DNA of 62,615 nucleotides, the filler included, from Hausera hauseri (taxonomy: Eukaryota): NCBI GenBank assembly GCA_046269625.1. It is 12 parts of 12 records of this genome, joined end to end, with 100 filler letters (N's around TTAATTAATTAA, not from the genome) between each part and the next. Parts side by side here need not be neighbours in the genome. Positions count along the whole stretch, not along the records: positions 4,110 to 13,606 come from JBJURY010357709.1; 11 more parts are not named here. The stretch is one strand, 5' to 3'. A model generated the notes under the pieces. The model did no database searches. It had not been told where the DNA came from and saw only the letters and a program-made list of their open reading frames with translations. The position numbers were made by a program, and so were the translations under genes. Shown here one piece after another: positions 4,110 to 60,585 of this stretch. Numbering within the stretch: the stretch's first letter is position 1; every line of letters begins with the position of its first letter.

Positions 4110-4111
4110 TT

Positions 4112-4660
4112 AAGGATTGTAAGGCAAGTTTAAGAGAACCCATGTTTAGACTTAGTGAAACAGACTGGGTTAGTTTGCCAAATGGAGGTATTACTACCTC
4201 TCCAAATAAATTAACAGGAACATATCTGGGGAAAGGAATTACGGACGATAAATTTCAAGATACCTCGTCCAAAGGCATATACAGGCCTAAGGAAATTGAA
4301 GCTTTCAGACAATTTATCGCTTTCCCGCAACAACGAACGCTTGAACTAAACCTAGCCATGGCCTCGGTAGTGGCCGATACAAGATATCAGGCTAAATGGG
4401 AATCATTACTTGGCTTAAACCATTATCAGGGAGTAAGTACAGAAATACTCTACAAAATTTCGGGAAGATTTTTGATTTTTGGCCAAGCCGCATCCAGATT
4501 CCTAGCGATATATTTCCTGATACAAATGATCAAGGCGGTCATCCAAAAAGTAATAAATGGATATGAGATATTTACATTAACCGAATTTTCATGCAAAATA
4601 TTGACTTCAATCATAACGCCCTTTGGAAAGTTCTTAAAAGCATATGAAGAGAATAGATGA
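4112..4660 (+). CDS. C-terminal part of a chuvirus (Jingchuvirales)-like fusion glycoprotein with membrane-anchor region
   Basis: DC....PMFRL...WVSLP; SSKGIY..EIEAFRQFIAFPQQR...LN; FLIFGQAAS.FLAIYFLIQMIK.VI..VINGY.I....S.KIL. This follows the recalled chuvirus G pattern (PMY..W; GIY...LR..IMFP; F..FG..SA....I....LIK.II...IHGY). Open from the contig edge. Confidence 0.75.
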   Translation, partial: KDCKASLREPMFRLSETDWVSLPNGGITTSPNKLTGTYLGKGITDDKFQDTSSKGIYRPKEIEAFRQFIAFPQQRTLELNLAMASVVADTRYQAKWESLLGLNHYQGVSTEILYKISGRFLIFGQAASRFLAIYFLIQMIKAVIQKVINGYEIFTLTEFSCKILTSIITPFGKFLKAYEENR

Positions 4661-5329
4661 AAATCAGACGTAGAACGCCATGTCGGCTATCACAATCGTA
4701 AACGAAAAGGAAGGCCTATGTTCTTGTACAAGCGGAAATCTACAAAACCCAATATGCGAAGAAATAATTTAGATGATGACGAGCCTAAGGGAGGAGAAGC
4801 ATTTGCAAAAATAAGCAGGCACAAGACGTACTCTATCATTAAAGCACCATTGACTATGCTACCTCCTACCGCTCTAGTCTATAACGACTGTGACAAACGA
4901 TCAATGAATTCATATTAGACGGAAACCTATAAAAGGATGATTAATGTAGAAGATCCGTATGAAGGCACGAAACGCTACGGAATCCTGCGGAAAATGTGTT
5001 ACCGACAGCCCGTGGAATATCCCAAAATGTTGTACTCTCCGAGAGAGCCTTGGAATATAGAAACTAGGTCAACGGTTTGGGACCATCCAAGGTTGAAAAC
5101 CCTCCAAAATATCGAAGTACACACTAACAATTGAGAACCTTTAATGAGTACTCAAGAAGCAGAAAACTTATTCATCGAAAGCAACGAATTATACCGAAAC
5201 GGAGAGTTGAAGCAACTAGCAGAGTACATAGTATCCTCCCCTGAAATTCGAATTAATGGGCATAAGATATCAATGATTAAACGTCCAAAAGTATCATCGA
5301 ATTGTGTTGGAATAATAATAGAAGGATGA

Positions 5330-8300
5330 CCCTTCGCTAAAATCATTATCGAAGACTGGGAAGTTTATGCATTAATTGATACAGGATCGGAAATGTCTTA
5401 CATCATAAATGATTCAATACCTCAAAGACTCAGAGAGCAGCTATACCCACCGTCTTCAAAAGGTCCAGGAAGTACAGGAGCTTTCGGTCAAATGTCAAAG
5501 CCAAGGTTTAAATGGAACCTGGAAGTTCAAATAGCTGGACAGTTTTTCCGTCATGAATTTGCAGTTATGGAGCAATTAACAAATGACGTAGTTTTAGGGT
5601 GCGATCTACTAAAAAGGTTAATAAATATAGCAATCGATTTGCAAACAGAAAAATTAATAAAAATCAGACTAAATAAAGGTATAATAAAGGCCAAAGAAAG
5701 AAAATTTGGAGAAGTATGGACATCTGTACACGAAGACATTCCACCAAGAACAGAAGTGATAATTTACGCCCAAATACAGCAAGATGACGATCAACGGGTA
5801 TATTTTGAACCAAAGGATACATTAGATCCGAATATATTACATAGCAATATACTAACAAGAGTACACTCCGGTCGGGTGCCGATCAGAATAGCTAATAACG
5901 CGCAGATACCCGTCAGGCTTCATGCTTATACCACTCTGTGAAATACCTATAGAGTATCGTCAATAACTATTGAAGAAAAACCTTATAAGTATGCCGAATT
6001 CCCGCCTCATGCCGAAACTAAGTTTTCATCTGAGTCTTATTGTCGACTCTATGAATTATTATGTCACCATAAATCTCTTCTGGCGAAAAAAGTCGAACGA
6101 ACGCTTAAGGCCAATCTATAGATCTTGGTATTCGCCAATCCAAATGGTTAAGAGGAAAGGTACCACAAAATATCGATTTTGTATTGACTACAGAGTATTA
6201 AATAATCTTACGATGAAAGATTCCTTCCCATTACCGTCAGTCAAAGAGGTGTTAGATAGACTCTCCAGAGCAAAATGCTTTACCACTCTGGATTTACAAT
6301 CCGGATATTGGCAATTAGAAATTCAGGACGAAGACCGTTATAAGACAGCATTTAAAACGCACGATGGTGTTTATGAATTTAACGTCATGCCGTTTGGTAT
6401 TACTATTGGGCCAGCCATATTTACAAGAATGATGAACAAAATGTTAATTGAACTGGATCATGCCTTTGCATATTTGGATGACGTAATGATAGAGTCAAGG
6501 ACAGAAAAGGAACATTTAAAGGATATTGAACATGCGCTGATGCGTTTGGAACAAGCCGGATTGAAACTAAATCCAAAGAAATATAAATGGGCTCAGAATG
6601 CAGTATCCTACCTTGGCCATATAGTTGGAGAATGAGGATCGAAACCATATAAATCGTTATTAAACAAAATATCAGATTTTATGGAAGCACAAAACCAGAA
6701 GGAGCTAAGGCATTGGCTAGGACTCTGCGGATATTATGCAACCTATGTGCCAGATAATTCAAAAATTAATGCACCCTTATATCATCTACTTAAAAAAGAA
6801 TTAAGTGGAAATGGACAGACGTCGAACAGAAGCCTTCGATGAGATGAAGAAGATATTAACAAGTGAATCTGTTTTACGATACCCAGACTTTCACTTACCC
6901 TTTATAATCAAGATAGACGCTAGTAAAGAAAGTATTGGTTATTAATTGGTGCATAAAAGAGAAGATGACAAACTAGAACACCCAATTTCTTATGGAGGAC
7001 ATTCCTTGAAGAAGGCCGAGAAAAATTACTCTGTTGCAGAATTAGAAACCCTAGCCGTAAAAGAAGCACTTTGATACTTCAACGTTTACGTATACGGGCA
7101 GAAAATTTTAATTGTTACTGATCACAAGCTGCTACGCCCTTAAAATGCCAGGCAAATAACCCGACATGCAGACTTAACAGACGGATCGAAGAAATATCGA
7201 GATACAATATCGAATTCCAGTATAAACCGGGAAATAAACATGTAGATGCCGATGCACTATAGAGATTAAAAACTAAAACAATCGCAATCACGGTAATAAG
7301 GAAAAGCAAACTTGAAGCAATAGTAGATTGCCAACGCACCTTAGTGCTGGATAAAGCAATTAAAATCTCCTCAGAATAAAGAAAGGATAAAGTTACTCAG
7401 CAGATTATACAATTTGCTAAAAAAGATATCATACCAAAGGGACGACAATTAAAGAAACATTTACGCAGACATGGACATAAATACTACGTCTTAAATGACA
7501 AGAGCAATAAGGATATTCTATATTACAAAGGAAGGAAATTGATAGTTATTCCAAAAGGTTTACAAATCGAAGCGTTAACTTCTGATCATGATTTGTATTT
7601 AGCCGGACACATGTCCTAGAAGAAAACATTAGAAAGAATAATGAATAAATACTTTTGGCCCAGTATCTGTATTGATATGAAAAATTGGGTAAATAGCTGA
7701 GAAGTATGTGCAACTAAACAAAAGAAGATGAAAAACTACATGGTCGAATTAATACCAATTAATGTGCCCGATAGACATGTGCAAGCCATGTCTATGGATA
7801 TCGTAGGACCTCTTCCTATGACCCACAAGAACAATAAGTATATCTTAACTTGTGTTGATCGACTAACTTATTTTGTCGAGTTGATAGCATTAATTGATCA
7901 AAAGGCAGAAGCTTTGGCCGAAGCCGTAGTAAGAAGAATTATTTGTCGATATGGGCCCCCAGACAAGATACTCACAGATCGAGGAAGAAATTTTACAAGC
8001 GGACTATTCGAGAACATCACCAAAATATTTGAAATCGAACGGTTAACAACTACCACATATCACCCTCAGTGTAATGAAATGGTCGAACGGATGAATGTTA
8101 CCGTCATACGGATACTATCAACAGTAGTGGCGAAGGACCAAAAAGATTGGTACGAATTTTTAGAAGGAACTCAGTTTACTGTTAATACCATTCCACATTC
8201 AGGAACAGGATTTACGCCATTTTTCATGATGTATTGACGTGAAGCCGTATTACCCACGGATATAGGAATGACGCCATACACGGTTAATCTTGAAGATTTA

Positions 8301-8620
8301 GAACAAAATTTTCCAGAATTAGAGCAGACGCAATGACAAAAGTGTTGGGAAATCGCCAAGACGTTATCTCAAGAAAATCAAAAGTAGTTTAAAAAGCAAT
8401 ATGATAAGAAAGCAAAACCACATGATTTGAAACCAGGAAATTTGGTTTATGTACACTATCCCGTAGCCAGGAAAGGCATCTCATTAAAACTGACTCGTAC
8501 AGGCAGAGGACCGTACGAAATTACCATAGTTACGCCGGCCGGAGTATATATTAACAAGAATGGAAAGGAAGAAGTTGTGTTAGTAAAATGAGTGGTCAAG
8601 ACAGAATACGGTCCAATAAA
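5330..8620 (+). pseudogene. pol: Gypsy pol of element A (protease, dUTPase-like spacer, RT, RNase H, integrase), disrupted
   Basis: ALIDTGS (5378); FCIDYRVLN, LDLQSGYWQ, MPFG, YLDD; RNase H DASK and NYSVAELE; integrase MDIVGP, TDRG, MVERMN; GPY motif near 8510. Many stops and frameshifts, and a deletion at the RT start. Confidence 0.95.
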
Positions 8621-10078
8621 CGTTACAATTTACGCCAACGCAAGTTAAAGGCATCTTCAATAATTGTTAGACCGATGTCGTACGTTCAGGTAGTTTTAGT
8701 ATTATCGTTAATTGCTTCTTAAGTTCCGAGAACACAGACTCAATGGTGGCACGATGAATCTACGCTAGGAGATGTATACGAAATTCGAAAGAGTGGAATG
8801 AGGACGAGGACCAAACCAGAACAAACCCCAGAAGAAATCCAAAAGCGAGAAGACATTAAATTATTGCAGTCGATGACAATCCATTATTTCTCGCCACACT
8901 CTGTATGTGTCGTATTTAAGGCGTAGAGGCCACACCACGATTTCGGAAAATTTCAAATCGTCTTACATGATGTAACAACAAAAGAAGCGAAAAATTGTGA
9001 TTTTGAACCGGGAGATTATACGCAGTGTTGCGATGTAGATTTTGGACGCACTTATAATCTTACTGATCGCCTATATCTACCGGATTCATCCAAAGTTTAC
9101 ATCGAAATAAAGCCACAATTCCAATCACTCATCCCTACGTGGAACAGACATCATGTAATAAAGCCTAACGAAATGTTACGATCCACTGACCCAGATATAA
9201 AACTATTAGACGAGATTATCCATAGAATCTCTGTAAACAAGGAAAACCAATGCATCCAAGTAGATGCCAAGACAGAGCTAACTGTCAGTCGAGAAATTAA
9301 TATCACATTCGAAGCAATAAAAGGACCGACTTAGAAGATAGGGTATTGTTCTATTCGCGCAGGCGTGCAACATCCATGCTGTAAACTACCCATAAACTAG
9401 GAGTTTATAATAAAATTTGACTTATATGACGTACGGCTGAATAAACCGAGTATCCAATTACGACCTTACTATCCAGAAAATAAAATATGGAAAATTCCAG
9501 TGGGAACCACGACCAAAGAGCCAACCACTAAGGTTAGTCTTACTACTCGGACTGCTACAGCGAGCAATATAACTAAAGGAAAATTGGAAAGCGTATCTAT
9601 TAAATATTCGGCACACCGATTTAAAATTGTGTTCTTTGTAGAAAGGAAACAAAATTACGATATTCACATAAGTTGCCGAACAACCTATAATAATCAAATT
9701 GTAACGTTACTTAAAGGCACTTATCAGACAGAATGCTTTTTGTTAAAACCGCAATCCGATTACATAGTACAAATAAATGCAGAAGGTAAGCAAAACCAAA
9801 CAATTACATTGCGTACCTTAGACGTAATTCGTGCAGGATCGCATACATATGAAAATATAGACGATGAAATCACAACCCCAGTTACAACACAAGCACCACT
9901 GAGATTAACTACTTTCCGATCGTATCCATTTTTTGTACTGTCAACGTTTGCTCTCATTATACTAATTGCGATTTTTCGGTTAGTTGCCAAAAATTGTTAT
10001 TTTAAGTGTCCTAAAAGTACAAAGTGGGAACTAAGGGAACTGGCAGAGACCATTGATTCATATGATAAAATAACCTGA
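8621..10078 (+). pseudogene. Type I membrane protein following integrase in element A (signal peptide, two Cys-patterned repeats, FN3-like domain, TM)
   Basis: One frame from RYNLRQR (8621) through MSYVQVVLVLSLIAS (8675) to 10078, with 4 point stops. Contains TQCCDVDFGRTY, LLDEII..CIQV..HPCC, CFLLKPQSDYIVQINA and TM YPFFVLSTFALIILIAIF. Confidence 0.75.
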
Positions 10079-10192
10079 CAATTACAGAGCGGGTTATTCT
10101 GTCACTGGATAAAAAATTGGTTTTATTTTAAAAATGATCTTTATTTTAAGAATAATCCGTATTATTTATTTCTCAGAATCGAGAACAGCGGG

Positions 10193-11958
10193 ATGTCCGG
10201 GCGACATAGAATCGACCAACGGGAAAAGGGAAACAATTCGACATGTCGAGTTAGTATAGACGAATTTCTACAGAATCACGCTACTATGCTGATTATGAAT
10301 TCCAATTCTATTTATCGATAAATGCACAACGAACTGTACGGAAAAGCTGTCATAAAATATGACCAGGTTTACGCCATACCGAATAATTTGAAAGGGACAA
10401 CGGAAGAAGCTAGAATCGTCTACCTTTATACCATGAGGGAAGATCGCGACGGTAAAGCCTACTCGCTCAGACAGCTAATAAATCACGAAATCGGTCAGGA
10501 TCTGTATATCCACTTAGCGGATGGCAAAATCTATTACAGGCTACAAAACCAAGAATGCAATACGGAAAATAGACGACATTATAGATTTAGTACCTTAAAA
10601 TTACTAGGTGAAGATTTACAGGATAAAGAATTGAAATTCATAGTCACCGCTTTTTCCGTCAAAATAATGATTGAGGTAACAAAAGACGAACCGAGAAAAG
10701 TCTTGTCACCACCCCTAGAATTTCGGCATAGGCCGTTAGAATCAGAGATAGCGAAATTCTTATATTCCTACAGATTGGTGCCACACGCTAGGAATACTAA
10801 AATTATCGCTCTAAGCTGCGGCGAAGGTAACGAGGCGGACAAAATACCGATGAAAATTTTAATCAGGGAGACGGATGGAATGGAATTATATCACACGATT
10901 ATTAGCCGAAGAAAACGAGTCAGAGATACCTTTTTTGACAAAACAGGAATCCGTAAAGAAAATTTAAAAGAAGGAAGCGACATCAAAATGGTACAAAATG
11001 AATTAGCCCATTGTCTGTATGGATGTATACTTAATGGATATCGTGTGGAATAAGATATATCGTTATTAGAGATTCCTTACTGAAGAATGGCAGGAGTAAG
11101 ACAGCTTAATACGCACCCACTTATTGACGAGAGAACAAAGAAACTGCTACGAGAAAGAGACTATTCGATGCCAAAGATCATGGACGCTTACTTCAAAATA
11201 ATGATAGAAGCTACAATTAATAGTCGGACTAAAATTAGTAAATTGTTGACAGCAACCAAACGTACTCAGTACCTACGAGATGCTTATGCCGGAATATCGT
11301 GGGAACACGAATATGTGCCCACAAAACCTGAGTATAACTTGATCAGTGCTGCAAACCCAAATCAAATTGATGGGAAATACCGTAAAGAATATCAACCCTA
11401 CAAAATGCTCGGAACTGACAATAATTAGCTTCATAGCACCAGTCAGAAAGACTCCATAATGCCACTAGACAAGGAAAAGACGACAAATCGGCCTTCAAAA
11501 TCCCCAAAGTTCCACAAAAGAAACAGAGAATCGATACAAAATCGCAAAATACAAAAGGGAAAACTTCCTTATGTGATCGCATATTTAAAGGGACGCGTAA
11601 AATCAGTGGCACAGAAACGATGATCGAAGTAACGAAGAAGACAGAAAATGTCCTACTAGTTAAAAAAGAATCGGAAGAAACTATAGTTCAAGAAAAAAAA
11701 GACCTAGAAAAGATTAAAAGGTATACGGAAATAAATATTCTTAGGAATAGAAACTCGACCGGAAATCAACACTTTGCTGCTGTAGGAGATTCGCCTAAAA
11801 TGCTAATAATAACTGAACATTATAGCAAAGGAAAGATCAAAGAAGCAGTCTTTTACATCACGGTTACCCCAAAGAGAGAAGTATATGAAAACACCTATAT
11901 ATGGGAGAATCCCAAATTAGGAAAATATGTTGCCCTGATTTTCCAATCAGAGACATGA
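10193..11958 (+). pseudogene. Long accessory ORF of unknown function downstream of the element A polyprotein
   Basis: ATG 10193 and ORFs 10322-11053 and 11087-11428 share one frame broken by isolated stops. ORF 11620-11958 follows in a shifted frame. Same strand and A-rich composition as pol. Confidence 0.5.
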
Positions 11959-12229
11959 AAAATTAACGGTGCCAGTAGANNNNNNNNNNTCAAGACACAA
12001 TATCAGAAATACCTAGCAGCCAACCGAGTTCCGGACTTAGATCACGAGATGGTGGTCGATTGGACATTAGTAGCAGTAAGTTGTGACCCAAGACGAAGCG
12101 CCGTGGACCCAAAACAGAAACGAATTCATGGATACTTATATTGAGGTAAAGAATCGTTAATATTTGAACAAATTGAAATTGCGATCAGTGGACCTGAATG
12201 ACGAAAAATGGAAAAGAGAAGAAAATGAA

Positions 12230-12364
12230 TGCCCAGTCTGTGAGGCAAACTTCCAACAAGGATATGTTATCCTGGATAACAAGGATTGCAGACATAAATA
12301 CCGCCGGGAATGACTAGAAAAGTGGACCCTAGAAAATGGTAAGACCACTTGCCCAGTATGTCGA
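12230..12364 (+). pseudogene. Degenerate RING-H2 zinc finger
   Basis: CPVCEANFQQGYVILDNKDCRHKYRRE*LEKWTLENGKTTCPVCR. Ligands 5 and 6 read CGC and TGA, each one substitution from His and Cys. Not in the ORF track. Confidence 0.75.
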
Positions 12365-13314
12365 GCCGAAGCAGCCGACTTAAAGTACTTCTCAAACGGA
12401 GGATATACGAGAGTAGTACGTATAAAATTTTATCATAGTTACGAAATCGAAATTCGGCACGATCATAATGATACGGATTCCGGAACTAGTTTACGCCGAC
12501 GAATGAATTTATTAAGACCTCGCGAGGCTTGCGGCACATCTTCGGACTAAATGGGCACCTCAGAGAATGCCGTTCAGGAAGAAGATATGTTGTAGTGACG
12601 GACTAGTGGGCGAAATGCTAAACAGGCGACATCTGTAAATATTTTATTTCCTAACAATTAAATTGTAAATACTTATTGGTTTTGAAAATTTCCTGTAGCA
12701 ATTAAATTGTAAATAGTCGGTTTGATGGATTTTGAATGATCATATATGCAATTATAATGCCAATAAAAATAATAGATCAGAAAAAGCGGAAAACAAAACA
12801 AAAATTAATATGTAAAAAGGAAATAGTAGAAAATTTAACGGAAAAATTGGAACTATATAAACAGAGATGAAAATAGTGAAAAAGAGTAGTAATGAGTGGA
12901 AAATAGCTAACGATCGACAGCAAACAATTGGAAACTTCAAGGACAGAGTTGATTGACTTATTTGACGATTTTTATTGCGGAGTGATCGACGTATTGTATC
13001 CAGAATTTTACTGGTAAATGTTTTTTTTATTAAATTGTTGTACGGTCTTAAATTTCTATATAGCTTTGCATTGCCCCATAAGGGTAATTGGACTCTCCTA
13101 AGTTTTTAAAATACACTGTAGCCTTAAATGGTTAAGAGTTGAACTTATAATTCGCACGTCATAGCATTCAGTACAAGCATTATATTTAAAATTTCAATAC
13201 AAGGCACAATCTGTCTACTAGATTACGGTAGACCTTCCCTGTATCAAAAGACTAATTTCAACGTAAATATTGTTAGTATTATAAAATTGCCGGTTCTGGG
13301 CCACCCCCCCTCAT

Positions 13315-13520
13315 TTGCGTAACTTCCGGTTTGAAATTGCGCAACGACCGGGGTAGAATTGCGTCACTTCCGGTAAAAATGGCGTAACCCGGTAGAAATT
13401 GCATCACTTCCGGTAAAAATTGCGTAACATCCGGAGGAAATTACACAATTTTCAGCGGAAATTGTGCAATTTGTGCAGGAATTGCGTCACTTCCGGGGTA
13501 CAAATTGCGTTACTTCCGGC
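13315..13520. repeat. Degenerate tandem repeat, unit about 20-23 bp (AAATTGCGTCACTTCCGGT), about 9 copies
   Basis: Copies include ttgcgtaacttccgg, ttgcgtcacttccgg (twice), ttgcatcacttccgg, ttgcgtaacatccgg and ttgcgttacttccgg. Confidence 0.85.
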
Positions 13521-14368
13521 AGTAGCTGTGTCCTGATGGGGAAAAATAGTGTAAGGCACATAAGTGCGCGGGGATTGTCGGGATAACCGTTCAGGATAGC
13601 CCTGTCNNNNNNNNNNNNNNNNNNNNNNNNNNNNNNNNNNNNNNNNNNNNTTAATTAATTAANNNNNNNNNNNNNNNNNNNNNNNNNNNNNNNNNNNNNN
13701 NNNNNNATTCTTTGTCTTCTGTTTTGTCTTAGTGTAAATTCTTTAGTTGTTACATTTTATTAAGTGACAATGGTATTAACTTTGCAAAATTTAAACAAAA
13801 GTGGGAATAGTGAAACCACGACTGCACCAATCAATATATTGAATTTCAAAATCAATATATTGATTTTCAAAATTCCCCATATAAAATTCCTATGCATTAT
13901 TGATTATCGATCCTGGGGGGGGTTGGTGCAGTGCGCTCACTTTAACCTACTATTACTCGGTTAAGACAATTGATTGAGATATTCAGCAAGAGGTAATAAC
14001 CCTTCGAATCGATTGAACATGAGTGTTATAAATGACCTGAAGAAGTAAGAATTCCTTTGGTAGATAGTCACAGAATTATTAATCTAACCATTAACTTATT
14101 AAACTAGTATGAACACAATAAAATTATTTGACACCTTTTACAAAATAAAGAAGATATAGCGCAGATTACTTCTGTAATCGTACCGCCGTCGAACTCACCT
14201 TCAGATTATCAATATTCATTCGATTTGTATGTTGGTTGTATCAAACACCGAGACATTGCCATATACACAACTAACACTCTTCAAATGTTTTTTCAGCTTT
14301 CGATATTGAATCAAATTTCTTATTACTCAAAACTTGAAGTCAAAATTCCATTTCCTGCCGTTTGTTTA

Positions 14369-37006: not shown

Positions 37007-37376
37007 NNNNNNNNNNNNNNNNNNNNNNNNNNNNNNNNNNNNNNNNNNNNTTAATTAATTAANNNNNNNNNNNNNNNNNNNNNNNNNNNNNNNNNNNNNN
37101 NNNNNNTACCGGTCGTAGCTAGCTGTTTTCTAGCAAAACATGATGCGCAATGGAAAAAAAATGTTTAAAGAAAGAAATGAAAAGAATTCGCTATATAGCA
37201 ATATAAATGACAAGAACGATGATAATGATGATTTCGAAATTAAGCCAAAAAGCAGTAAATATATAGAGATGGAGAAATCTCTCATTAAAACCACGAAAGC
37301 GGAAATACATGTCGAGGTTGATAACAGACTTACCACAATTAAACGATGAATATCATGGACAAGCTACAACGGACAA

Positions 37377-40300
37377 ATGATAACGAATCCATCAGCTCCT
37401 CAATATTCAAAGCGTGAGGAAATGTACCCCATGTATCAAGTCCTACAAATAAAACGAAATTATGATGAAAATCTCATACCAAGCCACCATGAATCAAACT
37501 GTAAAACGACGGACAAGAATGAGTCACAATCGCCTGTGAAACCAGAAATAAATATAGAAGTAAACGTATACCCATTAACGGCTTTGCTGGATACTGGATC
37601 TACAACCACTATCATGAGAGATGACCAGTTACCTAAAGAACTGAGAAGAAAGTTAAGAAAACCAAACACAACGCTAGTTAACGTGGGAGCATTTGGTATG
37701 GAAGAAGAAATAAAAACGGTACTAGACGCAAAAGTTAAGATTGGCAACCAAATACTAAACCACACAATTAGAGTAGCCAAGAATTTGACCAACGATATAT
37801 TAATCGGATGTGACATATTAAATCAGCTAGAGAATGCTTATATTGATTTAAAGACAGGTCAATTAAAAACCTTTAATAAGGAACAGCATGAAGGGTCAGT
37901 TTCTCTGGTACAGGACGTGATAATTCCACCACAATCCGAAATAATAGTACCTGGCCAAATAGAAAGCAAATTACTCGCCACATATATACACTTTGAACCG
38001 TTTTTAAGAACAATGGAGAAGTACGATATTATTATTGCTCCGCATGTAGATAAAGTGAGAAATGGAAAGATTCACTTACGAATTTGCAACGCTGGAAATA
38101 ATGAAAAATGACTAAAGGGAAATACAAGGTTGGGAAAAGTAACAGAGATCGAAGAAATACAAAAAGAAAAAATTAATTCAGTTATATCAGACGTAGATGA
38201 GATAGAAGAGTTGATGAAGAAGAAATTGAAGAAGGAAGCAAAGGAAGGCAGGAGAAATAAAGAAATGACAAGAATTAATTGGGAAGAAAAGTTGGGGGAC
38301 TGCGAAATATTAACCAAGGATGAGAGAAGAATGTTAATTCAATTATTAAAAAAGAACAACGAAAGATTTGCCCAAAATGATTATGATCTAGGTACGATGA
38401 AGGTAATACAACATTCCATCAAATTAAAAGAAGGACAGGAGAAACCAATAAAGAAACGACCATATCGCCTAGCTTATTATAAAAAGCAGGAAGCTCAGAA
38501 AATCATAGAGGAAATGAGAAAAAACAAGATAATACGACCAAGTTGCTCACCATGGACAGCGCCTGTAGTGATGGTTAAAAAGAAAGACGGAGCCATGAGA
38601 TTCTGCATAGATTATAGAGCTTTAAATGAAATAACCGAAACCGACACTTATCCGCTACCTAGAATCGACGAAATACTAGACAAATTACACGGATCAACGA
38701 TATTTACCACTATTGATTTACAAAAAGGGTATTGGCAAGTAGAAGTAAAGGAGGAAGATAAACCTAAGACAGCCTTTTCAATAGGCGAAGGACTATGGGA
38801 ATTTAATAGAATGCCGTTCGGATTAAAGAATGGACCACCAACGTTTCAAAGAGGAACTGAATTACTACTGCTGGACGCACCACATGCCATGGTCTATATT
38901 GATGATGTTATAATAGCATCATCAGACTTCCAACAGCATTTAAAGGACCTGCAAGACCTCTTTGATAGATGCGAAATAATGAGCCTAAAAATAAACCCAA
39001 AGAAGTGCTAATTCGCCCGGGCAGAGGTCGATTTCCTCGGACACCGAGTCGATAGGCACGACGTGAAACCGCAAGATAGGCTTTTAGGGAAGATAAAAGA
39101 TTTTCCCAAACCAACTACAGTGAATGAACTACGCCGATTCCTGGGCTTAGCGAATTATTATCGAAGATTTATAAAAGATTTTAGCAAAATAGCCAAACCC
39201 TTATATGAATTACTACGCGAAGATTTAGAAAAAGTAGTATGGACAAGTGACTGCCAGAGAACTTTCGAGGAATTAAAAGAAAGATGGCTAAATACTCCAA
39301 TCTTAATCTACACAGACATGACAAAGCCGTTTATATATTGGCAACGGACGCAAGTGACTATGGAGTAGGAGCAGTCCTTTCCCAAAAAGGCGAAGATGGG
39401 AAAGAACACCCAGTAGCTTATGCTTCTAGAAAGTTAAATAAACATCAAAGGAATTATGCAGTTATTGAAAAGGAACTACTAGCCGTAATATTTGCACTAG
39501 AAGTGTTCTCACCATATATCAGTGAGAATAAGCCATTATCGATATACACAGATCACCGACCCCTACAATGGCTGAAGCAACACGAAAACCCAAATAGTCG
39601 ATTATTACGATGGGCTCTCAAATTACAGCCCTATACGTTAAATTTTCAATATAAACCAGGAACACGGAATGCAAATGCAGACTATTTATCAAGAATGCTT
39701 GAAACACCGAAGATAAAAGAAGTGGTCGCTGCAGTATGGAGCATGGATGGATCCGTAGAGAAAATAAAACAGAATCAACAAGAAGACACAGAGATAAAGG
39801 CAATTAGAAATTATATACAAAACAAAATATTACCATCAAATCGAGAATTAGCTAGACATTTGGCCCGATTCAGTGAGGCCTACGAAGAAAAGGATGGATT
39901 TTTATATTATATCCACCAAAATGGACCAACCTTGGTAATACCAGAGAAGAACAGAACAGTGTTATTGACACAATACCATGACGGATTATTAGGAGGTCAC
40001 CAATCAGCACGAAAAACGACAGCCAAATTAAAAAGGAAGTATTTTTGGCCCACCTTAGTGAAGGACGTACAAGAATGGTGTGATAGCTGTAAACTCTGCG
40101 CTACGCGTAGGAACACCGGATCAAAATTCAAAGCTCCCCTCAAAGTATGGGATAATCCGCCAGCCCCGTTTGAGTTCACAGCTATGGATGTAACAGGACC
40201 TTTACCACTAACCCGAAACGGAAATAGATATATTCTAGTTTTCATAGATTACTTCACTCGATGGGTAGTAGCACTGCCTATGGCAGATATGAAAGCGGAC

Positions 40301-41089
40301 ACAATAGCCGAAAAATTTGTAGAAAATATAGTATTTAATTACGGAGCCCCAAGAATTCTATTAACAGATCAAGCGTCTAACCTTACTGGTAATGTAATGC
40401 AGGCGATATACGATATTATGCGAATTTTGAAACTACGTTCAACACCAGGACACCCGAAAAACAACGGAATGCTTGAAAAATACATTGGTGATTTAAAAAG
40501 TAAATTGCAAACGGTTGTTAGCTCACGACAGGACGATTGGGATGAATATATCAACGCCTGTGTATTCGTAAATCGAACATCTGTACATGAAGCCACCAAG
40601 GAAACGCCGTTTTATTTAATGTATCTAAGAGATACCCGACTACCTATTGATTTGGATTTCAACGCAAAGCCCACATCTCATTTGATGGAGTTGGAAGAAT
40701 ACAAATTGTTAATGCAGGAACGTTTACAATTAGCATATAAAATAGTGAAGGATAATCAAAAAGACTATAAAGTCACCTATAAAAAGTATTATGACGAAAA
40801 AACGAAACAACCTAAGATCAAGGTCGGAGATAAGATGATGTTGCATACGCCACTAAACAAGAAAGGAAAGACATCCAAATTGGATAGACCGTATAAAGGC
40901 CCATACGAAGTAGAAAAAGTGGACCTACCAAATCTCTGTCTAAAGAAGAATAACACCACATTCAAAGTACATGTAAATAGATGTAAACCAGCAGCCAAAG
41001 AAAGCAAGCTTAGACAAGATGAACAGGATATAGTAAGAAGTATCGAGGATAAATCAATTGTAAATCATAAATCCTACGAACCAAAGAGA
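37377..41089 (+). pseudogene. pol: Gypsy pol of element B
   Basis: LLDTGS; FCIDYRALN, IDLQKGYWQ, MPFGLKN, YIDD; TDASDYGVGAVL, EKELLA, TDHRPL; HHCC finger; D-D-E in AMDVTG, LTDQ, GMLE; GPYEV. Confidence 0.96.
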
Positions 41090-42499
41090 CATCTCTTACT
41101 AGTAATACTAATGTTACTGCCACAAGTGTTGAGTCAACTAACTAATCAGGAAATCGAACGAGCTAAAATACGACATGCAATGGCCATAAACGAAGATTTG
41201 ATGCTGAAAAGTTTGAAGTATCACATAACCTATTCTATGAAAGGCCAGAAATGTGCCATTTGGTACATTACAAGACAAATGCCCAGCAAATATATGATAG
41301 GAATACAAATGATCCCGTGGAACGACTATAAAAGGGATCCTAATGATCGACAGTACGACTGTACACTTTATCCAGCAACAAATGAAACCCAATGTTTGTT
41401 AGAAAATTCAGGGATTAACACGGTATACCTTACACTCATAAAAAGAAAAGGAGACTATTATCATAGTCTATATACCAAATTTAGCAAATACATTCAAATC
41501 CCCAGTCGATTGCAAATGAACGAAACTCTATTGGACGAAATCATACTCAAGCAATTAAGGATAAGATCGATGGGATTCAAAAGTGGACGTAGTTGCATTG
41601 AAGTTGTAAGTATAATAGAACTCGAATACATCCGATGGATAACAATATATATAAAAGAATCAGGAGGCAAACAAAAACTATTAAAGTGCGAAATAACATA
41701 TGAGCAACAGCAAGTATGTTGCAATGTAACGAGAGGTAAAATATACGATACAAAATATGTTTTATCTCGAAAGGAACATGGAAAATTTAAAAATAGAATG
41801 CAGATAAAAGGACCAACCATGTATATTAGATATAAAAACAAAATAGAGTATAATGAGAAGATTGAAGTTGTCACAAAACCATCTGAGGTTACGGGGCCGG
41901 CTGTGCATTTCCCGTTGAGTAATGACAAGAGAGACATGACTATTTTGATCAAACCATATGCATCATACTACCGACAAAAACGCTCCATATGGGAAAATGT
42001 TACAATTACAACTACCCCGACAGCACTAATACTGGCAGTAAAACCAGATCTTGATTTCATAAAAGTAAAATTTACATGTAAGTTGCGAGATAAGGTAGTA
42101 GCAAAGGGAGACATAACCCCTGACGATTTAATAGCGCCATGTGCGGCCTTGGCACCCAATACTCAATATACGGTTATTCTCCAGTTAGTCGATAATAACC
42201 ATAAAGTAATATTAACGAAAATCTTAACGGCTATCACACGAAAGGAAATAAGAACTCCAAAGTTACACGACCAAGTCATCAACAAATATACCACCACTCA
42301 AAGGCCGCCACGTGCCACATATAAATACTCTCGAATAGAATTGATAATAGTAGGTGTTTGTGCCCCCATAGTATTACTATTAATTACCTTAGTTTTAATA
42401 AAAGTAACTCTTTATGTACGACGACGTCGCAGACAGACATGGACAAGAATAGACCTGCGACGTATACCGAACACCTTGAAAACCGATAATCCAAGCTGA
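41090..42499 (+). CDS. Type I membrane protein fused in frame to the integrase C-terminus (about 470 aa)
   Basis: Signal-like HLLLVILMLLPQVLSQ; Cys-patterned repeats; furin-type RQKR/S (41972); FN3-like CAALAPNTQYTVIL; T/P-rich stalk; TM IELIIVGVCAPIVLLLITLVLIKVTLYV followed by RRRRR; several NxT sequons. Confidence 0.85.
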   Translation, partial: HLLLVILMLLPQVLSQLTNQEIERAKIRHAMAINEDLMLKSLKYHITYSMKGQKCAIWYITRQMPSKYMIGIQMIPWNDYKRDPNDRQYDCTLYPATNETQCLLENSGINTVYLTLIKRKGDYYHSLYTKFSKYIQIPSRLQMNETLLDEIILKQLRIRSMGFKSGRSCIEVVSIIELEYIRWITIYIKESGGKQKLLKCEITYEQQQVCCNVTRGKIYDTKYVLSRKEHGKFKNRMQIKGPTMYIRYKNKIEYNEKIEVVTKPSEVTGPAVHFPLSNDKRDMTILIKPYASYYRQKRSIWENVTITTTPTALILAVKPDLDFIKVKFTCKLRDKVVAKGDITPDDLIAPCAALAPNTQYTVILQLVDNNHKVILTKILTAITRKEIRTPKLHDQVINKYTTTQRPPRATYKYSRIELIIVGVCAPIVLLLITLVLIKVTLYVRRRRRQTWTRIDLRRIPNTLKTDNPS

Positions 42500-42717
42500 C
42501 GGTGGATGATAAGGATTGTGATCGACACAATCCACGCAAGAGAGATAGCTAAATGTCATGTAGCTACCCTTTTAGCAATCAAAAATAAAATTACAATGAT
42601 TACCGAAAATAATTATTNNNNNNNNNNNNNNNNNNNNNNNNNNNNNNNNNNNNNNNNNNNNTTAATTAATTAANNNNNNNNNNNNNNNNNNNNNNNNNNN
42701 NNNNNNNNNNNNNNNNN

Positions 42718-50591: not shown

Positions 50592-52556
50592 ATGGTACAG
50601 AGCATCAGTAATTTCAGATTTCCTTTGGCCGCCTGGATCATCATCATCCATGAGGTTCTGGAACGGTTCTCATTCTATGGCATGAAAGGGATACTATCGT
50701 TGTACTTAAATATATATTTGGGGTTTTCTGAGGACACTTCAACTATTTTCTATCATTTATTTACGGCAGTGTCTTACTTGAGTCCGATACTCGGTGCTGT
50801 GGTTGCAGATAATTATTTAGGTCGATACAAAACAATACTCTGGATGGGAATTATTTATCTAATTGGTCATTTGTTGATGTCTTTAACGGCAATTGTGAAC
50901 AACATCCCCGGACCTTTAATTGGAATGTTCATTTTAGCACTCGGTGCTGGATTGATCAAATCATCGGTGGGGGCATTTGGTGGGGACCAAATCCCGGCGA
51001 ATAATGATGACATGATTGCCAAATATTTCTCTTTGTTCTATACAGCAATCAATATCGGTGCATTTGTTGCCCAGTTCGTAACGCCCATTTTACGACGAGA
51101 TATCTCCTGTGTAGATGGTCAGTGTTACCCATTAGCATTCGGTGTACCCGCAATGGCATTTCTCCTGACGTATTTGTTGTTTGTTGCCGGTTCAAAAACA
51201 TACAACATTGTTCCATTATCAAAGAGCGCTATTTCGAAATTTGTCGAGTGTACAATTTATGGCATCTGTCAGTTTGTTAGAAAACGAAAGGAGAAAAACT
51301 TCAACTCGATATTGGACTATGCCAATGATCGGTTTGATGTCGAATTCATACAACAATGCAAAAAGGCAATTCGAATCATTATTATTTATACCCCTATCCC
51401 AGTTTTCTGGGCTCTATATGATCAACAAGGATCCAGATGGACCCTTCAGGCAAAGTATATGAACGGTAAAATTGGTCAATCATATTACATGAAACCAGAA
51501 CAAATCCAGTCATTTAATTCACTTTTTATCATCCTGCTGATCCCAGTTTTTGATATGATCATCTATCCTTTGCTGGGTCACATGAATATTTTACTGAAGC
51601 CAACTAGTAGAATAATTTCATCTTATTTTGTAGCTGCTGCGGCATTCATACTGGCTGCCATTATTCAGATATTTCTCAATCAAGGTCAACAAGTCTATTT
51701 CCCATTGAACTCGAAAATCGTCTTAATGAATACTATTCAAAACTGCAGTCTTTATGGAAATATTTCCGGCGTTGAATTTTCAATTCCTTATTCAAACTAT
51801 AGGGTCGTAGATACTCCAGCAGGAAACCTCAGTCTCATTGCAAATTGTGGTGGAACCCTTGCACTAGAAAAATCCATAACGTTAAAAAAGAATGCAATAA
51901 AAATGGGAATAATCGATTTAGAACATGGAAAAATGAGACTAACATCCGATGATGTTATTGTTTACCCAGCAGATGGATTTGGTTATGTTAGAAAATTGCC
52001 AATAAATACGGGAAATATTTCGGTAAGAGAAATGAATGAAGATAAAGTAATCGACGATAAATATCGACAAATCAGAGTTGGACAGTACAAAATAATTTGC
52101 CAAGGAAACAACAGTCATTCTACAGAATGCGGTGTTGTTGATATTTCACCAGGTTTAACTGGGACTCTTGTCCAAATTCAAACGAATGAAGTTCGATTTA
52201 TTCCCGAACATTCTCCCACATTGATTCATATGTTATGGCAGCTACCGCAATATGTTATCATAACGTGCGCGGAAATTGTGTGCTCAATTACGACACTTTC
52301 CTTTGCTTACTGTGAGGGTCCAGATAAGCTGAGGTCGCTTATGCAATCCGTTTACCTTTTGACGATATTCGGTGGGAATTTGATTGTTGTATTTGCTGCT
52401 ACTGTTGGCCGACTGGTGAGTCAGACTATTGAGTTTTTCTTGTTTGCAACTGCTGCCGCGATTGCCGGTTTGGTCAATTGGATCTTAATTAAATACGTTT
52501 GGGAATCTCAGAGGACCATATCAGTTACGAATGTGGTTGATTATCAGATGAATTGA
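50592..52556 (+). CDS. Proton-coupled oligopeptide transporter, animal SLC15A1/2 (PepT) type; intact and intronless
   Basis: EVLERFSFYGM; SPILGAVVADNYLGRYKTI; AFGGDQ; FY.AINIG; FWALYDQQGSRWTLQA; large extracellular domain before HMLWQLPQY. 654 aa. Confidence 0.95.
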   Translation: MVQSISNFRFPLAAWIIIIHEVLERFSFYGMKGILSLYLNIYLGFSEDTSTIFYHLFTAVSYLSPILGAVVADNYLGRYKTILWMGIIYLIGHLLMSLTAIVNNIPGPLIGMFILALGAGLIKSSVGAFGGDQIPANNDDMIAKYFSLFYTAINIGAFVAQFVTPILRRDISCVDGQCYPLAFGVPAMAFLLTYLLFVAGSKTYNIVPLSKSAISKFVECTIYGICQFVRKRKEKNFNSILDYANDRFDVEFIQQCKKAIRIIIIYTPIPVFWALYDQQGSRWTLQAKYMNGKIGQSYYMKPEQIQSFNSLFIILLIPVFDMIIYPLLGHMNILLKPTSRIISSYFVAAAAFILAAIIQIFLNQGQQVYFPLNSKIVLMNTIQNCSLYGNISGVEFSIPYSNYRVVDTPAGNLSLIANCGGTLALEKSITLKKNAIKMGIIDLEHGKMRLTSDDVIVYPADGFGYVRKLPINTGNISVREMNEDKVIDDKYRQIRVGQYKIICQGNNSHSTECGVVDISPGLTGTLVQIQTNEVRFIPEHSPTLIHMLWQLPQYVIITCAEIVCSITTLSFAYCEGPDKLRSLMQSVYLLTIFGGNLIVVFAATVGRLVSQTIEFFLFATAAAIAGLVNWILIKYVWESQRTISVTNVVDYQMN

Positions 52557-57883: not shown

Positions 57884-58705
57884 GTATGCGCAAGACTCAA
57901 TACATTGGACAATTAGTACACCTCTGAATGGAAAACAAAATAAAATAAATGTTTTACATTAAGATATAAATACTGTAACTTGAAATATGACAACATATTT
58001 TTCGGTCTTGAGAAAAAAGCCTCCTTACTCCCTTATAAACAATTATTCTAAACGCTACAACAAGAACAACAACAACAACTAAAAGTCGCATGGAACAGTA
58101 CATTGAAAGCGAGTTTAAGAAATTGACCGATAATATTTTGAGTGGATATGCCTTTGATGTTCAGTTTTTATGTGAGCTCGCAAAAACCAGAATAATTAGT
58201 AGACGGGAATATATTGAATTAATTGTCAGATCTCTATTCATACAACGTATCAAAGATGAAATGAGACGAAAACGGCAANNNNNNNNNNNNNNNNNNNNNN
58301 NNNNNNNNNNNNNNNNNNNNNNTTAATTAATTAANNNNNNNNNNNNNNNNNNNNNNNNNNNNNNNNNNNNNNNNNNNNCACAACTGCCAATCAAAACGTT
58401 GGGGCTATGATAACATAGACAGCAGGGGAGAAGTCGAAAAGCTTGTTTATGTAATTGTCGTGTTCACCATTTTATAAGGTAGCGAAGTAACACCTGTCAG
58501 GAGGTTTGAAATGTGTATTTTGTCTGTATCAGAAATCCATCTAACAGTGTCATGAGACAAAAGGCCGGCTGATTGTGATTCTTGTCGATACATTGGTCCT
58601 CCTTCAGTTGTTAAAATTGTTAATTGGAGTGAGGATGAAAAAAATCAAATGTAAAATACAAGGTGGGAAAGAGTTGTTAACAGAAAATTATATTTTGGAT
58701 GTGAA

Positions 58706-60585
58706 TTGAATTCAGTCGGAGAATATGACATTACAGAGATGTTTAACGGAACAAATTCATTTAATTCTGATGACATAAAAATACTTATCCCATTTGAATT
58801 GTTTCCATTTAGATGTGCAGTTGGGATACAAAGTGAAGAATATTCATGGAAAATCATTGGTTATTTCAATGAAAGTTCCATTGCAAGTTCTATAGATGAG
58901 ACTGAAATTTGTAGTGAATATTGTAAGAATGTTGGCTTATTAAAAATTGTCGAGTTCGGCAATGAGATTGTTTTAAAAGAAGTGAAAAAAGTATATGGTG
59001 AGTGTAAATGGATTGGTAAAATAAATAGTCGGATTACAGTCGGGATAGAATTCAATATCGATGTCAAAAACAAACGAAAACTAATTCTAAATGTAATAGA
59101 CATTGCACATTATTACAAAGCACTCAGTTGCGAATCAATTGTCAGTTTGGATCGATTCCTACCAGAAATGTTGGCAAAAACTGATATTATTGAAGAAATG
59201 TTGGCCGGTTCGTCACAAGTTGTGGAAGTGAGTGACATTCAAAATCTTGGTCCAATAGTATCGAATTTGATGTACAGTAATAATCAGTTGGTCCTTAGCA
59301 AGGTTGAACGATCACTGCAAAATGCATTGTGTGTTAACCGATGTTTGGTAAAAGAACTAACATTAATTACTGGTTGTAGATCACCAGAGACATTATTGAC
59401 ACCATTTGTATAATCATATATTACAAGTCGGCGGAACGTTGCAATATTGTATTTGGGCCTATACGGAAGCACTGGGGGTGATTTCGTATACGTTGGCAGA
59501 GAATATTGAATTGAATTTGATACAGACAGTGACGAAATTGTGTAAACGTTATATCGACGGAGAGAAAAATGCAGGAACTAATATTAAGCATGGTTGTGTG
59601 TCGAATATAACGGAAGATGATGTGATACAACCGTTGTTGGCGAACCACAGTTCGATAATGTTGACAACGGGAACGGTGTATGTATTGAGGCCGATTTATA
59701 CCGTTTTACAAATAATTATGACAAAGACTTATGTTCAAAGGTTGGCGGGTGTCCTTATAATTCTCCGGTACCTGTTCAATTCTGAAAAGATTTGTGAATT
59801 AAACCGTTGGATTTTCGGAACCATATACGTCAGTGCGTTGAAAAAATCATGCGAATTGCCAAAGAAATTCGGTCCGTTTGAGATATACGAAGATCGTCCG
59901 GTCAACAAAGATAATTCACATTCGAATACGTGGAATGTAAAGTGCTACGTCTATCTGGATTGGGCTGGTTTGAGGATTGAATTTGCCAAATACGGTGTAC
60001 GAAGTAGTTTACTTGGAACACAAATGCCAACTACTAACACTCCAAATTTTCGTAAACAACGAATGTTTCGGACTGCTCATGAAATATATTTGTCTACGCA
60101 GAGTGAACAGCGGAGAATTCGTTGCCATCAATCAGTACATGATGGGTGATTTAATAAAATCGAGAATCTGGTGCGTCGACGTGAGTTATGTCGTTATGGT
60201 TAAAAAAGGATCCATCCAGAAAATTATCTGTACCTCAAACGACATTAAAAACTTATACGAAATTATACGAGAGATTAGACGGTCTTCCATAATAAAAATG
60301 GCTGCCGATAAATCATCGATCATTGACCAGAATCAAAATCTGAATTTACATGTCAGTAATCCGGGTCGTCAAAAACTGACATCATTGTATTTCTATAGAT
60401 GGAAACCGAGACTCGAAACGAGACTGTGCTACTGGTTATCTATAACACAAACAACACCAAATATTATTCAACCTCTGTGGAATTTGGTGGATGTGATAAC
60501 AAAATTGGGAATGTTAACGGCTATCTTCAGAACCACAATTATTGATTGCAACGGGGTTCTGAATCCCCTTAAAAATTCGATGTAA
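58706..60585 (+). pseudogene. Unidentified frameshifted coding region (three overlapping ORFs over 200 aa)
   Basis: Consecutive same-strand ORFs of 235, 247 and 202 aa in AT-rich DNA; no motif recognised. Confidence 0.4.

Follow-up and report, generated by a model that had tools for sequence, protein, structure and literature searches.

Beyond the pol region of a decayed LTR element, the DNA examined here carries a long reading frame and, on the far side of a short run of N's, a segment resembling a RING finger. The question raised by this locus is whether the two belong to a single accessory gene and, if so, what the product of such a gene could have done for the element. The window, meaning the whole stretch of DNA that was analysed (62,615 nucleotides from Hausera hauseri, filler included), consists of 12 contigs chained by N44-spacer-N44 joints, and the region of interest lies on the contig at positions 4110–13606.

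Genomic setting of the locus

Everything on this contig reads on the + strand: a fusion glycoprotein, present as its C-terminal part, is followed by a protease, a reverse transcriptase–RNase H–integrase region, a membrane-type ORF and the putative accessory gene (Table 1). The portion of env present on the contig is the C-terminal 182 aa, and its match to PF24664 bears on the HSV/gB-type class from partial sequence. The order of env upstream of PR-RT-RH-IN, established by Pfam and tblastn searches, is that of GAG-ENV-POL errantiviruses, whose gag, paired LTRs and primer-binding site would here lie off the contig, and the element is a decayed env-pol Ty3/gypsy; the original prediction, which had placed an accessory gene in an LTR element, is supported. 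Between 4658 and 5330 the env frame closes with a single TGA; the same frame, interrupted by a few further stops, then continues to the protease, which gives env and pol the look of a single frame. The ORF that follows the integrase returned no family above cut-off in a Pfam search, and its membrane topology was assigned by eye. A contig from run X1 (depth 136) joins 8605 to 9946, seemingly a form of the element that lacks most of the membrane-protein ORF.

Elsewhere in the window, a second gypsy pol at 37107–42617 is nearly intact, and its integrase frame continues into a protein of about 450 aa with signal-peptide, ectodomain and transmembrane-like parts, which has no Pfam family and shows a weak likeness to the membrane-type ORF at 8675–10078 (pairwise E 0.008). 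At 58655–60585, TCP-1 chaperonin fragments adjoin fragments of the ribonucleotide reductase large subunit, and one ORF (59400–60149) matches both families, possibly another host-gene mosaic. An unbroken ORF of 654 codons at 50592–52556 encodes a POT/PTR2 peptide transporter (E 5e-80).

The 3' end of the element was located by motif. PPT-like 12-mers followed by TG occur at six sites on the contig, five of them within coding stretches, and the remaining one gives the candidate LTR start in Table 1; this boundary is a motif call, and the 5' LTR lies off the contig. Two alternative starts are a deeply covered block from about 13210 and a PPT-like site at 12576; the latter falls on the conserved protein tail, and the DNA beyond it has a depth of 8–11. 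The proposal that the ORF and RING might lie inside the 3' LTR does not hold, as all candidate LTR starts are downstream of the RING. No second copy of the LTR was found elsewhere in the window. The repeated 15-base motif that precedes the candidate LTR may resemble a composite ETS/CRE promoter motif. From this arrangement we infer that the gene sits between the membrane-protein ORF and the 3' LTR.

Table 1. Features along the contig at 4110–13606, with positions counted along the window.
Feature	Position	Strand	Basis
Envelope/fusion glycoprotein, C-terminal part, upstream of pol	4112..4657	+	Pfam PF24664 Monjiviricetes_fusion, E 2.9e-19; start off contig
Aspartyl protease, retroviral type	5327..5620	+	Pfam RVP, E 6.2e-6
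Decayed RT, RNase H and integrase	6090..8636	+	tblastn (query: pol of the second gypsy element in the window), E 3e-50 and 2e-77; translations
First accessory ORF: hydrophobic N-terminus, ectodomain, C-terminal transmembrane-like stretch	8675..10078	+	translation; 4 internal stops
Candidate splice acceptor	10162..10176	+	sequence; one of the seven best among 137 YAG sites
Predicted AlkB/2OG-oxygenase-like double-stranded beta-helix, no conserved HxD/E	10235..10699	+	AlphaFold model, structure search, motif scan
Predicted ISG20/REX4-like DEDDh pseudo-exonuclease	10793..11329	+	structure search, profile, alignment; 1/5 catalytic residues, 2 internal stops
Charged, poorly conserved linker with stop and frame change	11429..11779	+	frame tracking against P0011; P0011 model pLDDT below 50
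Conserved domain (P0011 residues 599–732), crossing the 10-N gap	11780..12177	+	tblastn, window scan
RING finger, C3HC4 type by ligand pattern	12230..12364	+	Pfam, ligand pattern; 6/8 ligands, one stop; conserved tail to ~12592
Six copies of a 15-base motif	13315..13519	+	most deeply covered part of the contig 3' end
PPT-like 12-mer then TG; candidate 3' LTR start at 13550	13538..13606	+	PPT scan; contig ends at 13606

One broken gene and its intact relative

The long frame with sparse stops that had been reported from the ATG at 10193 is present (411 codons, three internal stops), as is the acceptor-like tract that precedes it. Over the same stretch the other two frames contain 31 and 34 stops and shuffled sequences 28.8 ± 5.0, and none of 2000 shuffles had three stops or fewer. 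A splice acceptor at 10176 is plausible on sequence grounds. Across the contig 137 YAG sites were scored, and seven of them have at least 11 pyrimidines in 15; 10176 is equalled or surpassed in pyrimidine richness by the six others, and it alone of the seven lies between ORFs. A distant relative, the locus L002, has an acceptor-like tract (site 1836, top three of 43) in the gap before its ORF, a parallel that is weak because such inter-ORF gaps are T-rich anyway. The conserved domain begins about 20 codons past the ATG, and in two related proteins, P0011 and P0012, it is directly preceded by a Met that the window ORF lacks; position 10193 may therefore not be the original start.

The ORF had been described as an orphan, a view overturned by a full HMMER scan, in which nine proteins matched at E ≤ 0.001. 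Word-based searches with the window ORF returned none of 1720 and none of 2180 candidates as homologs, DNA scans of viral_contigs and metagenome_contigs found no locus of the window ORF, and a DNA scan of viral_contigs found none for P0011. The best HMMER match is P0011 (E 6e-84), an intact natural protein of 870 aa without breaks, encoded on one ENA contig of 16 kb. By tblastn it aligns in order with three segments of the window, 10256–11401 (39% identity), 11626–12177 (39%) and 12185–12592 (48%), and in the window these are interrupted by stops, while the frame shifts in the linker, again near 12180 and probably also near 11950. On this alignment, the ORF at 10193 and the RING make up the remains of a single accessory gene, 10193–12592. 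The architecture of the whole fusion is that of a single intact protein from a single 16-kb contig.

A RING relic had been noticed in a part of the gene missed by the ORF track, and it is confirmed by Pfam (zf-RING_2, E 2.3e-7, above cut-off). It had been assigned to the RING-H2 class, an assignment that has to be revised. Ligand positions 5 and 6 are Arg and a stop in the window and Cys-Cys in P0011, where all eight ligands occur in the order and spacing of the C3HC4 type, and the class is accordingly C3HC4 (RING-HC) by ligand pattern; the window RING looked H2-like because these two ligands have been lost. The Pfam scores of P0011 (zf-C3HC4 2.6e-7, zf-RING_2 7.6e-7) do not by themselves separate the classes. 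The segment is 48% identical to P0011 residues 736–870, the best-conserved part of the gene, and both proteins keep a Trp, and an Arg after the last Cys, which presumably have roles in E2 binding. The best PDB sequence matches of P0011 are RING E3s, for example RLIM (E 1.6e-4), and on this likeness of sequence the protein may be a RING E3 ubiquitin ligase. Among the relatives, no RING was found in the three that were scanned and none is listed for 11 further proteins; these 14 more distant relatives keep the five nuclease residues and have no detected RING.

The linkage of the RING to the long ORF had been thought to be weakened by the 10-N gap (11980–11989). It could be argued that the RING is a separate sequence, either a nested repeat or the product of a wrong scaffold join at the gap, since the frame changes between the pieces and the X1 depth of the RING (709–2048) differs from that of the first ORF (45–111). 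However, the two sides of the gap match consecutive parts of P0011, the segment 11626–12177 crossing it with nearly the spacing found in that protein, and the two modules are joined in a natural protein with which this region is collinear. One X1 contig is also present on both sides (11921 to 12058, with 47 letters on the shorter side), although joints at 80% likeness can arise from repeats, and the gene has decayed in step with pol. A separate origin of the RING is on this evidence extremely unlikely, and the original pairing of the RING with the long ORF stands.

Stops are as frequent in the accessory gene (7 in 702 codons) as in pol (11 in 1014; Fisher p 1.0), and the membrane-protein ORF has 4 in 467; the accessory gene has decayed at the same rate as pol, and the copy at 10193–12592 is dead. 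It is also multi-copy, as diverged copies with 80–86% identity occur in run X1 over 10127–10535, 10338–10629, 11133–11397 and 12258–12547, and two of the gene parts so covered include the candidate acceptor. Summed X1 depth, which is not a copy number, is 709–2048 over the RING, 45–111 over the first two domains and 1,500–28,700 over pol, and contigs identical to the window have a depth of 4–7; X1 may be the source sample of the window rather than an independent one. The low depth over the first two domains fits fast divergence and would also fit carriage by part of the family. Two outcomes would have counted against the original prediction, a RING mapping outside the element and a RING matching a single-copy host gene. 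Neither was borne out, as the RING occurs in many copies and a natural protein links it to the upstream ORF. A place within the element is favoured by the stop density shared with pol, the diverged X1 copies, the PPT-like site in a deeply covered block downstream of the RING, and the position of the relative P0014 behind a retroviral protease ORF.

Predicted folds and the loss of catalytic residues

In order, the gene specifies an AlkB/2OG-oxygenase-like domain, an ISG20/REX4-like DEDDh domain, a linker, a further conserved domain and the RING. The first two, which the original prediction did not mention, are the informative part. Modelling of codons 1–412 with AlphaFold from a 17-row alignment (mean pLDDT 73) gave a structure that splits into these two domains. 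For model residues ~15–169, VIA gave Ofd2 (Z 10.1, rmsd 3.5, 133 aligned), ALKBH6 (9.5), and ALKBH1 and ALKBH5 (both 9.0). Matches to the AlkB family overall are structural, with rmsd 3.4–4.4, 133–146 aligned residues and 5–13% identity, and because prolyl hydroxylases score alike (Z 9.1 for a viral one, and 8.8), the likeness does not extend to an AlkB subfamily. A scan of the 17 rows by sequence, without superposition, found no shared HxD/E iron motif in this domain; stray HxD/E occurrences are present in four rows, at three different places, and another histidine is invariant (15 of the 15 rows with a residue there). The N-terminal domain is thus predicted to have an AlkB/2OG-oxygenase-like fold that lacks the iron motif. 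An AlkB-like domain had also been sought in the linker (11330–11760), where there was no match, the fold mapping to the N-terminus.

The second domain (model residues 201–379) matches ISG20 (VIA Z 16.1, rmsd 2.8, 159 aligned), with agreement from Foldseek (ISG20L2, E 6e-7) and from a comparison of the family profile with ISG20L2 (E 4e-17), and a DEDDh fold of the ISG20/REX4 group is predicted. A separate model of P0011 likewise matches ISG20 and 2OG-oxygenases. The DEDDy alternative was considered, but the active-looking relatives have the motif III His, match RNase_T/ISG20, and are not DEDDy. A Pfam search with the window ORF detected neither of the two N-terminal domains. Weak Pfam matches to CHIPS (E 0.02–0.04) and Enterotoxin_b (E 0.016) fell below cut-off and were taken as chance.

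All five DEDDh residues are kept in 14 of the 17 alignment rows, which include close kin of one another and do not represent 14 independent events. Of the catalytic D, E, D/E, H and D, the window ORF keeps one of five, P0011 none of five, and P0012, which is truncated, none of the two that it covers. Motif I retains its D and E in 14 of the 17 aligned proteins, the exceptions being the window ORF, P0011 and P0012; 16 rows have residues at motif III, and 14 of these retain its H and D, which the window ORF and P0011 lack. The conserved domain that precedes the RING (P0011 599–732) returned no Pfam family above cut-off and no usable atlas match, which is not evidence of a new fold. The P0011 model has pLDDT under 50 over these residues, and its C-terminal half is unreliable except at 745–815.

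Homologs of the nuclease domain include cellular REX4 proteins, and this fold was therefore host-derived at some point. A possible extension of this is that the whole gene is a passenger, a captured host mRNA or a mosaic of host pieces with no role in the element's cycle. The named REX4 proteins, however, match the nuclease part only (E 4e-4 to 7e-4), whereas unnamed proteins of AlkB-like plus DEDDh type match over both domains, and one of these, the active-looking P0014, is found in L002, where it follows a retroviral protease ORF at a distance of 257 bases. A passenger would not be expected to keep its domain order at 39–48% identity, and we regard this explanation as very unlikely. In L002 itself, the ORF upstream of P0014 (3–1682) runs straight from a retroviral protease into a membrane-type protein, without an intervening RT, an arrangement that is possibly non-autonomous or gag-side. 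The domain order and RING ligands common to the window protein and P0011, which are 39–48% alike and both without the nuclease residues, suggest long upkeep of a non-catalytic role. The anatomy of the accessory gene as set out here is held with high confidence.

Possible role and relation to known systems

The locus is probably what remains of an accessory gene that an env-pol Ty3/gypsy element carried, and the protein, when intact, would have been an RNA-tethered ubiquitin ligase acting on host proteins. Its message would be a spliced subgenomic mRNA. The two dead folds, AlkB-like and ISG20-like, would hold the protein on RNA or an RNP, and through its RING a host E2 would be brought in to ubiquitinate proteins on the bound RNA, the targets most likely being silencing or restriction factors. 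The lineage may have started from an ORF with an AlkB-like and an active DEDDh domain, in which catalysis was lost and the RING gained. Given the anatomy, we put the chances of a ligase directed against host factors at about even. A wider proposal would be that a large animal gypsy family uses dead host RNA enzymes (AlkB-like and ISG20-like) to target RING-driven destruction of host silencing or restriction proteins on element RNA, as a mirror of the host protein PML, whose RBCC region includes a RING, with the steps of its origin visible in living relatives; this is offered tentatively and must be considered rather doubtful.

The main rival is that the dead folds act as a shield or decoy, covering the ends or modified bases of element RNA or titrating the partners of host AlkB and REX4 proteins, with the RING serving for self-turnover or oligomerisation. 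Both folds are of nucleic-acid-handling types, and fourteen relatives work without a detected RING, so it would not be needed for the basic role. Yet the loss of nuclease residues goes with the RING-bearing branch (three proteins, one truncated), and the RING is the best-conserved part of the gene (48%), so that a shield or decoy is judged unlikely.

To our knowledge, the counter-defence proteins of invertebrate LTR elements have barely been characterised. With its defined RING and two pseudo-enzyme folds, the intact P0011 provides a handle on the proposed ligase, as proteins found to bind it would show which host factors such elements must overcome, and the 14 relatives with intact nuclease motifs form a natural comparison. 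The window contributes the three-part architecture and its context on one contig, in the order env, pol, membrane ORF, fusion gene and PPT.

Accessory DEDD exonucleases of LTR elements have been called well known (PMC6338049). In the LTR retrotransposons Juno and Vesta of bdelloid rotifers, ORF3 encodes a DEDDy, RNase D-like protein with intact catalytic residues; splicing typically produces the messages for ORF3s, and there are inactive DEDD derivatives that still bind RNA (PMC5408684). The present gene is similarly a DEDD-superfamily accessory ORF downstream of pol, but it is of the ISG20/REX4-like DEDDh type, its catalytic residues have eroded, and it is linked in one protein with an AlkB-like fold and with a RING. 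Neither of these fusions is mentioned in the accessible text on Juno and Vesta (PMC5408684). An AlkB-family (2-ODD) domain occurs in an extra ORF of a Ty3/gypsy element of Phalaenopsis, and the orchid protein binds RNA; it is a recent and active m6A demethylase, whereas the likeness seen here is at the level of fold, with 5–13% identity and no HxD/E (PMC9289625).

Among elements with env ahead of pol, the GAG-ENV-POL errantiviruses of nematodes, bryozoans and flatworms share this arrangement, and the words 'accessory', 'RING' and 'exonuclease' do not occur in the main text describing them, although its supplements may list such ORFs (PMC13524379). The giant gypsy elements of planarians (Burro/GYPSM1) are alike in two respects, as env lies between gag and pol in Burro and its accessory domains are linked to ubiquitination, including an AIR1 RING-type Zn finger and MATH, BIR and Ubi/SUMO-like domains (PMC6431247). 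These form part, together with BCL2 and ankyrin domains, of a polyprotein of ~4,900 aa upstream of the protease, a region that in the present element lies off the contig with the rest of the 5' half, in contrast to the separate RING gene found here 3' of pol and fused to two pseudo-enzymes, and 'AlkB' does not occur in the accessible text of the Burro review (PMC6431247). On the host side, vertebrate PML is a functional analogue, as it combines a DEDDh-type domain with an RBCC region, and human PML-I promotes proteasomal loss of L1 ORF1p (PMC10123124). PML is a host restriction factor, compared here by function and not by homology, and it differs from the window protein, which is element-borne, with its RING at the C-terminus and an additional AlkB-like fold (PMC10123124). 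Literature searches, which were thin on subscription journals and excluded supplements, found no paper describing a fusion of AlkB-like, DEDDh and RING domains. Accessory ORFs of the DEDD and AlkB kinds have thus been published before for LTR elements, and it is the three-part fusion with a RING that makes the architecture of the present gene unusual.
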